Shown: piece after piece, positions 1,638 to 5,665 of the stretch
Position numbering within the stretch: the first letter of the stretch is position 1
Layout of the letters: each line of letters begins with the position of its first letter
NCBI GenBank assembly: GCA_038217285.1
Contig: JBBQPO010000233.1
Coordinates: forward strand, 1 to 10,023
Source: Chthonomonadales bacterium
GTDB taxonomy: Bacteria; Armatimonadota; Chthonomonadetes; Chthonomonadales; Chthonomonadaceae
Direction: 5' to 3'
DNA length: 10,023 nucleotides
The notes under the pieces: model-generated
What the model was told of the DNA's origin: nothing
The model's input: only the letters and a program-made list of their open reading frames with translations
The model's database searches: none
Translations under genes and position numbers: made by a program

Positions 1638-3236
1638 TCACCTCGGTCTTACGGGCCAGATAGCGTGGATCGCACGGTTTGCCAGCGTGTTGAAGTAGAA
1701 GCCGTTCCGAGCGTGGACATAGAGGCTGCGGCACCAGGAACGCGAAGCCCACTGTGGAAGCTGCGCTTGAAGCACCAGCATTCCTCCAAAAAGCATCCAG
1801 ATCGTAACCAGCAACACCCCATGACCTGGAGAGCGGCGCTCGCTGAGCAGCGGCAAGGCAGAGGCCAGCAAGGCTCTGAAACCGAGATGGAGCCCGAAAT
1901 AGAGCCCGCTCAGTGTGGCGCACAATAGTAGACCAGCAGTGACGAGGCGCGGCGTGATCGATTGGCCCCATATACTCCACAGCCAGTACGCCAGGGACAC
2001 CAGTAGTACGGAATGGAGAAGCGCTTCGCCCGGCTCTGCAAGGGGAGAAACACCCCAGAAATAGGCCGTCAGAGAGGTCACAAGAACAGAGGTGAACAGA
2101 GAGGCTGCGAATACGGCGGGATGCGCGGCAGGTCGTTCACGTGGAACCCAGGAAGTCTTCGATATCGCCACCACGCTGCCGGAGGAAAGAAAGGCGTGCG
2201 CCTTGTAGAGTGAGTGAGCCACAATATGCAAGACAGCAATAGAATAGGCGCCCAGCCCGCACTGCAGGAGCATAAAACCCATCTGCGCAATGGTCGAAAA
2301 GGCGAGCATCCGCTTGATGCTCGCCTGCGTCATCATCACCAGGGAGGCAAAAATGGCCGTACACGCGCCCACAATCGCCAGGGTATCCAGAGCGAGCGGT
2401 GAGAGAGAGACGATCGGGCTGAGACGCAGGATCATAAACCCGCCCGCATTGATGATGCCGGCGTGCATCAAAGCCGAAACGGGGGTTGGGGTCTCCATCG
2501 TATCGGGCAACCAGGAATGAAACGGAATTTGGGCCGATTTGAGCATCGCGGCGACTACCAGTAAGAGGCAGACTGGGATGATCGCGGGCGGTAGATGGCC
2601 ACTGGCATGGAGCGCTCCTGCATCCGCGAACAGTTCACGAAACTCCCAGGTGCCAAACACGTGGTAAACCAGTACGAGCACTGCCAGCAGGCAGAGATCC
2701 CCCAGGCGACTGATCACGAACTTTTTGCGTGCGGCGACGAGCGCGGCAGGCCGATGAGCATAAAAAGTCAGTAATTTGTGCAGCGCCAGGCTGGTGCCCA
2801 TCCACGCTCCTGCAAACAGCGCCAGATTGCCGGAGACGAGCAGCGTCAATACGGCACCTATGGTGACGCACAGCCATTTTAGAAAATACCCTTGCTCCGC
2901 ATCTCCCTGTAGGTATCGGCACGCATAGCGCGTGACGATCATCCCCAGAAAGGCTACCAATACGAGCATCACAATAGAGAGAATGTCGCAGTAAATCCCG
3001 ATCTGGAGGTGATTCCACTCCACAAAGACATTCTGAATTCGCCCAATAAAAGCTTGATGCAATGCACATAAAAGGGCAGCCGCGAACGCTAAGACGGTCA
3101 CACAGGAGGCCAGGTGAGAGATCTGCTTTGCATGGTGGTTGGCCCATCGCCTTGGCACCAACAGAAAGGCTAACAGCAGCAGTGGCCCGGATACCACAAG
3201 CATCGCTGCGGACGAACAGTTCCAAAGTAAAGGCAT
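1638..3236 (-). CDS. dabB: Inorganic carbon transporter membrane subunit DabB (NuoL/ND5/MrpA-like proton-translocating subunit, MpsA-like)
   Basis: 532-aa polytopic protein with ND5-family motifs SRLGD, KSAQIPFHSWLPDTMETPTPVSALMHAG, IKRMLAFSTIAQMGFM and HIVAHSLYKAHAFL. C-terminus LYVHARNGFYFN is DabB-like. RBS GAGGAGG lies 7 nt upstream. It is adjacent to a DUF2309 gene, with no other nuo or mrp genes in the window. Confidence 0.95.
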   Translation of the reverse strand: MPLLWNCSSAAMLVVSGPLLLLAFLLVPRRWANHHAKQISHLASCVTVLAFAAALLCALHQAFIGRIQNVFVEWNHLQIGIYCDILSIVMLVLVAFLGMIVTRYACRYLQGDAEQGYFLKWLCVTIGAVLTLLVSGNLALFAGAWMGTSLALHKLLTFYAHRPAALVAARKKFVISRLGDLCLLAVLVLVYHVFGTWEFRELFADAGALHASGHLPPAIIPVCLLLVVAAMLKSAQIPFHSWLPDTMETPTPVSALMHAGIINAGGFMILRLSPIVSLSPLALDTLAIVGACTAIFASLVMMTQASIKRMLAFSTIAQMGFMLLQCGLGAYSIAVLHIVAHSLYKAHAFLSSGSVVAISKTSWVPRERPAAHPAVFAASLFTSVLVTSLTAYFWGVSPLAEPGEALLHSVLLVSLAYWLWSIWGQSITPRLVTAGLLLCATLSGLYFGLHLGFRALLASALPLLSERRSPGHGVLLVTIWMLFGGMLVLQAQLPQWASRSWCRSLYVHARNGFYFNTLANRAIHAIWPVRPR

Positions 3237-3286
3237 CAGCGATCCTCCTCTTAGTGGAAATAATTTACCGTTTAGGGTACTATCAC

Positions 3287-3315
3287 TTCACGATTCCTAT
3301 GACACGAAGTATTAT
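3287..3315 (+). promoter_or_regulatory. Putative sigma70 promoter of the regulator operon
   Basis: TTCACG (3287-3292), a 17-nt spacer, then TATTAT (3310-3315). The -10 overlaps the -10 of the dabBA promoter on the opposite strand. Confidence 0.5.
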
Positions 3316-3340
3316 ACACGAAACATAGTTCGTATGTCAA
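3311..3340 (-). promoter_or_regulatory. sigma70-type promoter of dabBA
   Basis: Minus strand reads TTGACA (3340-3335), an 18-nt spacer, then TATAAT (3316-3311). Both hexamers are perfect consensus, about 75 nt upstream of the dabB start. Confidence 0.88.
3314..3337. promoter_or_regulatory. Palindromic candidate operator ATACACGAA-N6-TTCGTATGT (core ACGAA-N6-TTCGT)
   Basis: Inverted repeat centred at 3325/3326, with a perfect 5-bp core (3318-3322 / 3329-3333) and 7 of 9 matches in the arms. It fills the -35/-10 spacer of the dabBA promoter, next to a divergent wHTH gene. Confidence 0.7.
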
Positions 3341-3386
3341 GCGGCATGAAGCGCGTTTGACGGAATATTTTAGATGAGGAACAGAA

Positions 3387-3686
3387 ATGACAGAAGTGAG
3401 GAAATCCGCCCAGGGGTGGACATTTTTGACCAATCACGCACACGTGCTGATCTGCCTGGTGCGTGAGCCCGATTTGCGCCTACGTGATGTCGCATTACAG
3501 GTGGGTATTACAGAACGCGGTGTGCAGCGGATCGTCACGGAACTCGAAGAGGCCGGAATTTTAACGCGCAATCGTGACGGACGGCGAAATCATTATCAAG
3601 TGGATACGACCCGTCCTTTGCGTCATCCAATCGAAGCGCATTGCACGATAAGTCAACTGCTGGAGATGGTGGCAACAGATCCGTGA
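3387..3686 (+). CDS. Small winged helix-turn-helix transcriptional regulator (MarR/ArsR/AsnC-like HTH, 'WTFLTNHAHVL' type)
   Basis: 99 aa, with RBS GAGGA 6 nt upstream. HTH: LRDVALQVGITERGVQRIVTELEEAG; wing: RNRDGRRNHYQV. Divergent from dabB. Confidence 0.9.
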   Translation: MTEVRKSAQGWTFLTNHAHVLICLVREPDLRLRDVALQVGITERGVQRIVTELEEAGILTRNRDGRRNHYQVDTTRPLRHPIEAHCTISQLLEMVATDP

Positions 3687-3737
3687 AGATTCGTGTTTGA
3701 GCGACTCAGAAGAATGTCTTTTTCAAGGAGCGTTACT

Positions 3738-4868
3738 GTGGCGATTGGTATGACGTATGCGCGAGCGCGATTGTGGCTGGGAATCAGTTGCGTGGGAACG
3801 ATGGTCGTGGTTTCAATTCTGTTGTTGCTGTTCCGGGTTCCGGCGTATCTGCTTACGACGGGGATGGCACCGTTCGGTACGGAGGTCGCGGAGTTAGTAG
3901 GAGTTCTGTTCGCCTATGCGTTCCTGAGCATCCCCTTCGACTTTTTCGGCGGCTACATCCTGCCGAAAGAGTACGAGCGTTCCACGCTTCGTTTCCCGCA
4001 GTTTCTCGGTAGATGGCTGCGCGGCGTCATACTTCACAGCACGATTTTGCTGCTGATCGCCCTTGCTCTGTTGCACGCGGCGAAGGTGGGCGGCTTCCCC
4101 ATGTTTCTCGGCGCGTATCTTACTCTCAACCTCGTCTTGCTGCTCCTGCAAGCCCTGCTTGCAAATCTTCTCGGCGGTACGACGTATCGTAAGACGGATA
4201 CAGAGACGGCGCCATCCAAAGTGCTTTTCGCCGTAAATCCGAATCCCTACTACACGGGCGGCATTGCGGGATTGCCGGGTATGGAGCGCGTGATTGTGCC
4301 GGAATGGTGGCGAACTGAGTTCTCGGCGGAACAACTGGAAACGATACTGCTTCGTCGAACAGCCGTCCTGCGAAATGGTTCTCGCACACGCGGACTACTG
4401 CTGGCTCTGCTCTGGAATACCTTCGGGGTGTGTCTCTGCGCGTTGCTGTCGGGGCATCTCGCGACAGTTGGGGGAGTGGTCACGTTCAGCCTATGGTTCA
4501 CGCTCTGGAATTTCATCGGGCTGTTGCTGTTGCCTGCGCCGTCGCAAAGAGGTGTGTTTGGCGGCGATACGTTCGCGCTACGGCACGGTGCAAAAATGCA
4601 GACGCTGGAAGCTATTATCGCGCAACTCGACTCGTACCAGGACGATGAGGTTTCCCGCGTTCCCAGCGTTGAGACCTATTTCCATCCGATTCCCTCCGTC
4701 GAGCGGCGGCTGACTATGCTCGATGCGGGCGGTTCTGCCGAAATCGGCGCGTGGAATGGGGCAAGAATGGCGATCTATCTCTCGTGGGCAGGCGGCAGTT
4801 TCCTCTCCCGCGCCGTCCATTGCAACTGCGGACGCCCCGATGTCTGGGTCTTCCTGCCGTGCGATTAA
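3738..4868 (+). CDS. Polytopic membrane protein, degenerate M48 (Ste24/HtpX-like) peptidase fold lacking HExxH; His/Cys-rich C-terminus
   Basis: The ORF is open from 3693; the best start is GTG at 3738, 7 nt after AAGGAG (3725-3730). It has several hydrophobic segments. Collinear M48-like blocks: LSIPFDFFGGYILPKEYERS, NPYYTG..ERVIV, FSAEQLETILLRRTAV, SQRGVFGGDTFA, FHPIPSVERRL. It ends RAVHCNCGRPDVWVFLPCD. The CDS is well supported; the fold assignment is by eye. Confidence 0.75.
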   Translation: MAIGMTYARARLWLGISCVGTMVVVSILLLLFRVPAYLLTTGMAPFGTEVAELVGVLFAYAFLSIPFDFFGGYILPKEYERSTLRFPQFLGRWLRGVILHSTILLLIALALLHAAKVGGFPMFLGAYLTLNLVLLLLQALLANLLGGTTYRKTDTETAPSKVLFAVNPNPYYTGGIAGLPGMERVIVPEWWRTEFSAEQLETILLRRTAVLRNGSRTRGLLLALLWNTFGVCLCALLSGHLATVGGVVTFSLWFTLWNFIGLLLLPAPSQRGVFGGDTFALRHGAKMQTLEAIIAQLDSYQDDEVSRVPSVETYFHPIPSVERRLTMLDAGGSAEIGAWNGARMAIYLSWAGGSFLSRAVHCNCGRPDVWVFLPCD

Positions 4869-5017
4869 ATCGCAATGCCTCCGTGCTTCTTCATTTCCGG
4901 TGTTGGCACGATACTGATTCTGCCGTCCACTTCAAACAAGACATGGGAATTATAGCGGTTCCTTGCTCGTTACAACAGTGCACAGTAATGTATTCTTTCG
5001 TGCCAGGAGTAGAGACC

Positions 5018-5665
5018 ATGTTCATAACCAGAAATGTTTTGTCCGCCCTATTAGCTGTCACCGGAAGCACCTTGATGGCCGCTCTGACCGTCAGTGCACA
5101 GGAAAAGCCAGTCGGGCAGGAAGAGAAGGCCGCAGGCAACAAAGTGGCCCCCCAAGCGAAATACGTGAAACTGAAGACCACCCTCTACACCCTTGAGCTA
5201 CCCGCTGGCTGGGAGGCAGGCCCCGAGACGCCTTTCGGGCAGCGTGAGATCAAGCCCATGCGGGCGACCGATATGGGAAAGCCAGCCGAGAAGTCTGTCG
5301 AGCAGGACTCGATCAAAGGGGACGAAGGGCAGTCCCTCGGTGGAATGACCGCCATGACCGCACAGGGGTTGACCACGTCCTCCTGGGACCAACTCTACAA
5401 GACGTCGCTCTTTTACATCACGCGCTATGACCGCAGCGACAAGATTAAGGCGACCCCCTACAAACTCTCCAAAACGAAGCGGGGCCTGGCGTCCTGCTCC
5501 TGGACGATGCAGGACGCAGAGGGCGTATCCCACGCGCGCTACACTATTCTGAAAAGCCCGAAAGGGCCTATTCTTGCGCTCAGCGTCAAGTTCCCGAACA
5601 AGGCGAGCCAGAAACGCCTCGACGCCTATTTCCAGCATGTCGTGGACACGGCCCTCTTCAACTAA
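5018..5665 (+). CDS. Secreted/periplasmic hypothetical protein (215 aa), possibly PsbP/Mog1-like fold
   Basis: AGGAG RBS just upstream of the ATG at 5018. Sec-type signal peptide MFITRNVLSALLAVTGSTLMAALTVSA|QE. The pattern YTLELPAGWE ... DAYFQHVVDTALF recalls PsbP-like domains (weak). Confidence 0.75.
   Translation: MFITRNVLSALLAVTGSTLMAALTVSAQEKPVGQEEKAAGNKVAPQAKYVKLKTTLYTLELPAGWEAGPETPFGQREIKPMRATDMGKPAEKSVEQDSIKGDEGQSLGGMTAMTAQGLTTSSWDQLYKTSLFYITRYDRSDKIKATPYKLSKTKRGLASCSWTMQDAEGVSHARYTILKSPKGPILALSVKFPNKASQKRLDAYFQHVVDTALFN

Follow-up and report, generated by a model that had tools for sequence, protein, structure and literature searches.

What becomes of a Ste24-type membrane protease once its zinc site has gone, and does such a protein belong with the genes beside which it happens to lie? 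The question is posed by a gene at positions 3738..4868 (+ strand) of a 10,023-nt stretch of DNA (the window) from a Chthonomonadales bacterium (assembly GCA_038217285.1, contig JBBQPO010000233.1), which an earlier note had read as an M48/Ste24-like protein with an erased catalytic site, possibly acting as a sensor or assembly factor for the neighbouring DAB carbon uptake genes. The first part of that reading is borne out here and the second is not: we regard it as very probable that the gene encodes a zinc-less Ste24 descendant unrelated to DAB. The explanation that best covers all observations, to which as a whole we give a probability of about 0.6, joins to this descent a role, itself proposed at somewhat less than even odds, as holder of an isoprenoid-type molecule within a light-adaptation gene set. 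A tempting but wrong tie to carbon uptake is thereby corrected, and a large, highly conserved family without a Pfam or NCBIfam name gains a concrete lead to its function through its recurrence beside rhodopsin/retinal operons, photolyase-type genes and prenyl-quinone genes. The literature searched, supplements lying outside the search, held no publication on this family or any tying an M48/Ste24 homologue to rhodopsin operons, and the pseudopeptidase review PMC11266112 appears to mention neither Ste24 nor M48; the Ste24-type scaffold with an Arg-Arg replacement, the RAVHCNxGRP tail and the rhodopsin/photolyase association are new. To our knowledge, no inactive Ste24-type M48 homologue has an assigned role.

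Fold and zinc site of the Ste24-like protein

The gene has the features listed below; residues are numbered throughout from the ATG at 3750 (372 aa).

3738..4868, +, gene of the zinc-less Ste24-like membrane protein (376 aa from the GTG start, 372 aa from the ATG at 3750)
3725..3730, +, Shine-Dalgarno sequence AAGGAG, 7 nt before the GTG at 3738
3750..4175, +, residues 1-142, made up of four long membrane helices that correspond to ZMPSTE24 from its residue 68 on (transmembrane helix 1 of Ste24 is missing)
3933-3965, +, invariant PFDxxGGYxLP (D64, G67, G68), within residues 1-142
4182..4301, +, residues 145-184, small beta-sheet insert with TGGxxGLPG (G170 and G174 invariant), counterpart of the M48 NAYxTG strand region
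4353..4367, +, RRTAV at the HExxH position, with R202 for the first His, R203 for the catalytic Glu and V206 for the second His
4542..4577, +, SQRGVFGGDTFA, with V269 (4554-4556) for the third zinc ligand Glu and the invariant D273 (4566-4568), an M48 residue that has been retained
4680..4712, +, FHPIPSVERRL, counterpart of the M48 C-terminal HP..R, P315 and R320 aligning with the M48 Pro and Arg
4731..4865, +, C-terminal extension (residues 328-372) peculiar to the family and outside every Ste24 structure; its RAVHCNxGRP (4809-4838) is the most conserved motif
4863-4865, +, C-terminal Asp (D372), present in 187 of 188 family sequences; family proteins end in [LFY]PxD

The motif blocks on which the likeness to M48 had originally been founded, namely PFDFFGGYILPKEYERS, NPNPYYTGG..MERVIV, FSAEQLETILL, SQRGVFGGDTFA and FHPIPSVERRL, were all found in the translation of 3738-4868. 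Pfam returned a weak match to PF16491 (Peptidase_M48_N; E 1.6e-4, 22 bits against a 27-bit gathering cut-off) and none to PF01435 at E ≤ 1, and NCBIfam held no family for the protein. A profile of 46 family members searched against all PDB sequences matched ZMPSTE24 only, in two colinear stretches (E 0.003-0.005), and hhalign of the family alignment (A2, 46 sequences) against an alignment of canonical Ste24-like proteins (A3, 17 proteins from genomes of the same phylum, all with HExxH) gave a probability of 98.1% and E 1.1e-13 over 331 colinear columns. An alignment was required for this, the family against a single canonical Ste24-like sequence giving a probability of 0.7 and no match. The family profile also matched canonical 385-aa Ste24-like HELGH genes in Terriglobales (E ~1e-13), these weak matches numbering nine, one of them in genome G197.

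Structure prediction pointed the same way. The AlphaFold2 model (mean predicted local distance difference test, pLDDT, 92.0; predicted template modelling score 0.91) had ZMPSTE24 or Saccharomyces mikatae Ste24p as all of its top 11 Foldseek matches (E 7e-7, TM-scores 0.68/0.61, 338 columns), the next match being BlaR1 at E 0.37. VIA-align superposed model residues 1-327 on ZMPSTE24 68-472 with Z 22.0 and a root-mean-square deviation of 3.3 Å over 323 residues, the runners-up being BepA (Z 8.7) and BlaR1 (Z 8.4, 160 residues); it follows that the first Ste24 helix is absent and that the last 45 residues have no Ste24 counterpart. In the ESM Atlas the nearest entries were unnamed clusters, and M48 clusters came only after them, at 0.91. 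The fold check that the earlier note had proposed thus returned Ste24, and the likeness to M48/Ste24 lies well outside what chance would give. With ZMPSTE24/Ste24p (M48A; 4aw6, 2ypt, 6bh8, 5syt, 4il3) the protein shares the helical membrane barrel, the small beta-sheet, the cytoplasmic cap and colinear motifs, and the family retains M48 structural features in D273, P315, R320 and an NLxDP-like block (QDDEP); H312 of FHPIPSVERRL is offset from the M48 His position by two residues, towards the N-terminus. It differs from these and from bacterial Ste24-like M48 proteins (PF16491 plus PF01435) in lacking HExxH, the Glu ligand and the first helix, in remaining below threshold in Pfam, and, relative to Ste24p/ZMPSTE24, in adding its own 45-residue C-terminal extension with RAVHCNxGRP and the terminal Asp. 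Because the barrel and cap fold and the common descent indicated by profile-profile comparison are present, whereas HExxH, the third-ligand Glu and scores above the Pfam gathering thresholds are not, the protein is a homologue of M48A that should be filed as a non-peptidase homologue and not as a member.

The alignments placed the lost ligands where the earlier note had put them. In hhalign the canonical H-E-x-x-H lay opposite R202-R203-T-A-V206 and the third-ligand Glu opposite V269, the next Asp being D273, and the HMMER alignment to ZMPSTE24, whose zinc ligands are H335/H339/E415, put the third-ligand Glu at V269 as well. Among 188 distinct family sequences (the window's protein, 120 database proteins and, from related loci, 67 more of at least 330 aa), HExxH was found nowhere (0/188). 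Position 202 was Arg in 185 and His in 3; position 203 was Arg in 152, Lys in 35 and Val in one, hence Arg or Lys in 187; position 206 was Val, Ala, Leu, Ile, Thr or Ser in 186; and position 269 was Val in 179 and never Glu. Invariant in all 188 were D64, G68, G170, G174, F255, D273, R303, F311, P313, P315, R320, R339, R354, V356, H357, C358, G361, W366 and P370, with H312, E300, N359 and the C-terminal Asp each kept in 187, and 31 columns were invariant in A2. None of the three outcomes that the earlier note had named as refuting its reading (no structural likeness to M48, close homologues with HExxH, a variable Arg pair) was encountered, and this conservation indicates that the replacement of the zinc site is ancient and under selection. 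Beyond the missing motif itself, nothing speaks for a decaying M48 gene that has recently lost its active site or for an annotation artefact; the frame runs through 3738-4868 uninterrupted, as first described (376 codons plus stop), and the 188 relatives, which span at least 8 phyla, have these substitutions and the invariant columns in common. That explanation is refuted by the conservation and we give it virtually no credence. With other residues at each of the three zinc-ligand positions and at that of the catalytic Glu, the protein cannot be expected to work as an M48 metalloprotease and is predicted not to be one.

The family is large. At least 584 species genomes carry it (of 600 matched stretches, 584 were confirmed); a search of clustered proteins gave 343 homologues, and at E ≤ 1e-30 there were 337 clusters of 50% identity; Truepera radiovictrix and Armatimonas rosea are carriers among the named homologues. 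The window's genome has one family copy beside at least 8 ordinary PF01435 genes, and no meaningful family name was met in any source (protein database search, Pfam, NCBIfam). Judged from these comparisons, it is an old and widespread bacterial family descended from Ste24-type M48 zinc proteases. Its 45-residue extension was modelled at a pLDDT of about 80-96, which predicts a packed and not a floppy segment, and it matched no known family (Pfam, NCBIfam) or structure (VIA-align).

Light- and isoprenoid-linked neighbourhoods

The surroundings of the family gene were compared in 80 related loci, each taken with up to 7 kb on either side. A microbial rhodopsin gene lay within 7 kb in eight of them (L011, L016, L024, L026, L035, L045, L051 and L052), against roughly 0.12 expected by chance. 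Four loci, two of Terriglobus (L016 and L024) and two of Rhodanobacteraceae (L026 and L051), had family gene, rhodopsin, crtE, crtI, crtB, crtY and blh in this order and on one strand, the family gene standing directly upstream of the xanthorhodopsin (XR) gene at gaps of ~160-250 nt; in L052 it was divergent from XR. Locus L075 had crtY-crtI-crtB upstream and a rhodopsin gene ~8 kb away on the same contig, and in L045 the family gene followed 1 nt after the end of a gene with a phytoene-synthase domain. Seven further loci had BLUF genes or photolyase-related ones (DPRP, photolyase FAD domain), bringing those with a light-linked neighbour, a theme met in several phyla, to 16 of 80. The adjacent rhodopsins carry RY[VA]DWLLTVPLL..E, the DTE motif of xanthorhodopsin/proteorhodopsin-type proton pumps.

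As a separate observation, 18 of 25 rhodopsin open reading frames (ORFs) from family-bearing genomes were of the DTE type, and five (L114, L115, L116, L125, L126) read RY[IV]DW..TTPL...K[FT] in place of the DTE motif of helix C, the proton-donor position being a Lys. In a Truepera metagenome-assembled genome (MAG) the rhodopsin closest to the family gene (L011:2008-2799) has an in-frame TAG, and that genome holds four other rhodopsin matches.

The family copies of Rhodanobacteraceae share 56-57% identity with those of Terriglobus, 64% with a Granulicella copy and 39% with another proteobacterial copy, and in a quick IQ-TREE phylogeny of 77 rows (L004, L061 and L075, shorter than 330 aa, and L072, for which no ORF was found, were left out) they nest inside the Acidobacteriaceae clade with a support of 99. 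The identities and the nesting together imply that the family gene moved with the XR operon. In the passages of PMC7701988 that bear on it, the XR-crtEIBY-blh/brp operon is described as transferring horizontally, and its Tardiphaga form (XR-crtEIBY-brp) is reported without a family gene. The four loci named above carry the same operon, with DTE rhodopsins, directly downstream of the family gene, whereas the form described in those passages lacks it, and the window's copy, like most family members, is not beside a rhodopsin. Four XR-bearing Terriglobales are also without the family gene.

A second type of surroundings was found in six Anaerolineae loci (L015, L043, L044, L053, L056, L067), where ubiD lies directly upstream of the family gene and either RNHCP (L015, L044, L053, L056) or UbiA (L043, L067) is encoded directly after it, with UbiE-like, flavoprotein (UbiX-like) and PNPOx-like genes further downstream, each in three of the six; the whole looks like a prenyl-quinone (menaquinone-type) operon. 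Oxidoreductases recur in yet another form: an NmrA/NDUFA9-like short-chain dehydrogenase/reductase (SDR) with DUF2867 is fused N-terminally to the family domain in P0167 (881 aa), P0224 (a fragment) and L074:142-2838, and is encoded by a separate neighbouring gene in L022, L029 and L040. The fused copy P0167 ends in Glu instead of Asp. In three distant carriers, L003, L028 and L040 (Chthonomonadaceae, Blastocatellia, Acidobacteriota), the family gene is preceded at a distance of 15-99 nt by a classical short-chain dehydrogenase gene of the same strand.

At the level of whole genomes, PF01036 was present in 33 of 80 family-bearing genomes (19/50 plus 14/30). An even sample of the phylum (61 genomes) contained three with the family and one with rhodopsin, the latter being the window's own genome, and a sample of Terriglobales, the order of L024 (121 genomes), contained two with a full-length family gene and five with rhodopsin, both occurring together in one genome. 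Pooling the two samples gave rhodopsin in 2 of 5 carriers versus 4 of 177 non-carriers (Fisher p 0.009), and comparing the 33 of 80 carriers with the 6 of 182 sample genomes gave p 3e-14, figures that are inflated and confounded by habitat because MAGs from lakes, glaciers or streams are numerous among the carriers, rhodopsins being common in lakes and glaciers, and because kin are not independent. The window's genome encodes a single XR-type (DTE) rhodopsin (G000:C115:5830-6603, L113). Sister genomes of the same taxonomic family in the phylum sample had neither rhodopsin nor the Ste24-like gene. Searches for Blh (PF15461) in the window's genome, which is 95% complete, and for heliorhodopsin (PF18761) in 51 genomes found neither, and were uninformative, as no control genome matched either model.

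Proposed function and its rivals

The Ste24 chamber is known to receive a farnesylated substrate. We propose that in this family it may have been reused as a non-proteolytic holder of a lipophilic, probably isoprenoid-type molecule (related to retinal, a carotenoid or a prenyl-quinone), which would be presented to the Arg-rich cytoplasmic cap and to partner oxidoreductases within a light-adaptation gene set; the held molecule would be a substrate of the neighbouring or fused oxidoreductases or would be put to use by the rhodopsin system. In the window's genome the protein could act together with the lone xanthorhodopsin-type gene on contig C115. R202 and R203 probably occupy the vacated zinc site, where they would be salt-bridged to D273 and to other conserved acids. 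Such a filling of the site by guanidinium groups is as simple a reading as the anion pocket that the Arg pair had originally called to mind. For the family as a whole we put forward the light- and isoprenoid-handling role tentatively, at somewhat less than even odds. A bolder version is doubtful: that the family is an undescribed accessory of bacterial light adaptation or xanthorhodopsin phototrophy, in which an Arg pair has taken the place of zinc and a Cys-His-Arg loop has been gained, and which would support uptake or conversion of an isoprenoid, be it retinal, an antenna carotenoid or a prenyl compound, with SDR and FAD oxidoreductases while moving between phyla with XR-crtEIBY-blh.

Several observations weigh against the proposed holder, in addition to the inflation and habitat bias of the association figures. 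No light-linked neighbour was seen in 64 of the 80 loci, and no single neighbour was common to more than 13, the best shared one, a UPF0227 hydrolase gene (13/80), being confined to the Bryobacter group and so a matter of clade-level synteny. PF01036 rhodopsin was absent from 47 of the 80 family-bearing genomes, and among the sampled genomes G012, G026 and G081 had the family and no rhodopsin, and G167, G195, G196 and G227 rhodopsin and no family; the rhodopsin gene of the window's genome stands alone among unrelated genes on another contig. These counter-examples in both directions, together with that lone rhodopsin, make the link between family and rhodopsin a facultative one. Finally, the many invariant polar residues (H312, H357, C358, D273, E300, D372) would also suit a new catalytic or metal site.

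This last point is the substance of the main rival to the light and isoprenoid role, according to which the protein is a new enzyme whose catalytic or metal centre is built from H312, H357, C358, D273, E300 and the C-terminal Asp, while the VHCNxGRP loop cradles a nucleophile or anion, and whose activity would be that of a hydrolase, a phosphatase-like enzyme or an isomerase on a lipid or peptide substrate. H357, C358, D273, R354, R339 and R320 are each kept in 188 of 188 sequences and H312 and the terminal Asp in 187, whereas a merely passive scaffold tends to retain fewer invariant polar residues; the extension that carries the loop is predicted to be packed, the SDR fusion suggests a small-molecule pathway, and VHCxxG..R is reminiscent of the phosphatase P-loop signature. 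The P-loop, however, has CX5R spacing and the family CX3R, the extension matches no known family or structure, and most of the conserved cap residues occupy inherited M48 structural positions. We consider an enzymatic role of this kind unlikely, though worth keeping in view. Less likely still is a dedicated partner or biogenesis factor of xanthorhodopsin that binds the opsin or helps it to fold and handles no lipid. Ste24 and HtpX have established links with the quality control of membrane proteins, the family gene stands directly upstream of XR in four loci and divergent from it in a fifth, and it has moved between phyla with the XR operon. Against such a role, more than half of the carriers have no rhodopsin, the four XR-bearing Terriglobales have no family gene, and the SDR/DUF2867 fusions and the prenyl-quinone context do not fit a protein devoted to the opsin; the Tardiphaga operon, as reported in the passages of PMC7701988 already mentioned, points the same way.

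The dab genes and the borders of the gene

The other genes named by the earlier note lie upstream of the Ste24-like gene:

1-1572, −, dabA, running off the window; outside the gene under study
1638-3236, −, dabB, outside the gene under study, to which the earlier note had tied it
3387..3686, +, winged-helix (wHTH) regulator of 99 aa, HTH_24/MarR-like, divergent from dabBA; a neighbour of the family gene in this genome only

Position made the tie to DAB attractive. The wHTH gene precedes the Ste24-like gene by 51 nt on the same strand, no promoter- or terminator-like site was found between them, and co-transcription of the two in the window is possible; as the wHTH gene is itself divergent from dabBA, and the Arg pair is conserved, the protein could be imagined as a sensor or assembly factor of DabAB, or as half of a BlaR1/BlaI-like pair with the wHTH protein, its Arg pair forming a bicarbonate pocket. 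A tblastn search (E ≤ 1e-5) of the 80 related loci with the window's DabA, DabB and wHTH proteins, however, found relatives of none of them (0/80). In the closest relatives synteny was broken: homology with the window begins only at ~3713 in L001 (91% identical) and L002 (87%), the latter having a gene with a FIST domain upstream. A near-identical metagenome contig from X2 spans 3000-3742; other contigs, of environmental relatives, carry unlike sequence before 3713 (X3 and X17, with upstream sequence of the L001 type) and before 3747 (X2), and an X3 contig with dabB-wHTH runs into unlike sequence after 3686. As the contigs break on both sides, the dab-wHTH unit and the Ste24-like gene are separable in both directions. 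Nothing conserved ties the Ste24-like gene to dabAB or the adjacent wHTH gene, and the suggested sensor or assembly factor for DAB, largely refuted by these data, is now highly improbable.

The likeness to BlaR1/MecR1 (M56) and BlaI-type repressors extends to a membrane M48-clan domain beside a small wHTH protein and to a partial structural match (Z 8.4 over 160 residues, far from the value for ZMPSTE24). BlaR1, in contrast, keeps HExxH and has a sensor domain, whereas here HExxH is gone and the wHTH neighbour is not conserved (0/80), and a sensor protease-repressor pair of that type was rejected.

A perfect (12/12) sigma-70 consensus, TTGACA-18-TATAAT, lies at 3340-3311 on the − strand and faces dabB, which starts at 3236; a weaker promoter-like site at 3287-3315 on the + strand faces the wHTH gene. 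This divergent arrangement of regulator and operon suggests that the wHTH protein may control dabBA.

The Ste24-like gene likely starts at the GTG at 3738, to judge from AAGGAG 7 nt upstream. The frame is open already from 3693, and an in-frame ATG at 3714, kept in the two nearest relatives (L001, L002), is a third candidate start; MTYARARLWLG, the N-terminus common to the whole family, begins at the ATG at 3750. Contigs 90-95% identical to the window over 3995-4197 and 4404-4933 were found in an ice metatranscriptome library (X20), contigs of an RNA library not amounting to proof of transcription.

The Ste24-like gene is followed by an unannotated ORF and then by genes for a ClpC-like protein and a class IV aminotransferase. 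The unannotated ORF, given in the list as 4751-5665 (+) and without a Pfam or NCBIfam family, most likely starts at the ATG at 5018 (5018-5665), which has AGGAG 8 nt upstream. Its predicted N-terminus resembles a signal peptide, MFITRNVLSALLAVTGSTLMAALTVSAQ, and a homologue follows the family gene in L001 only.

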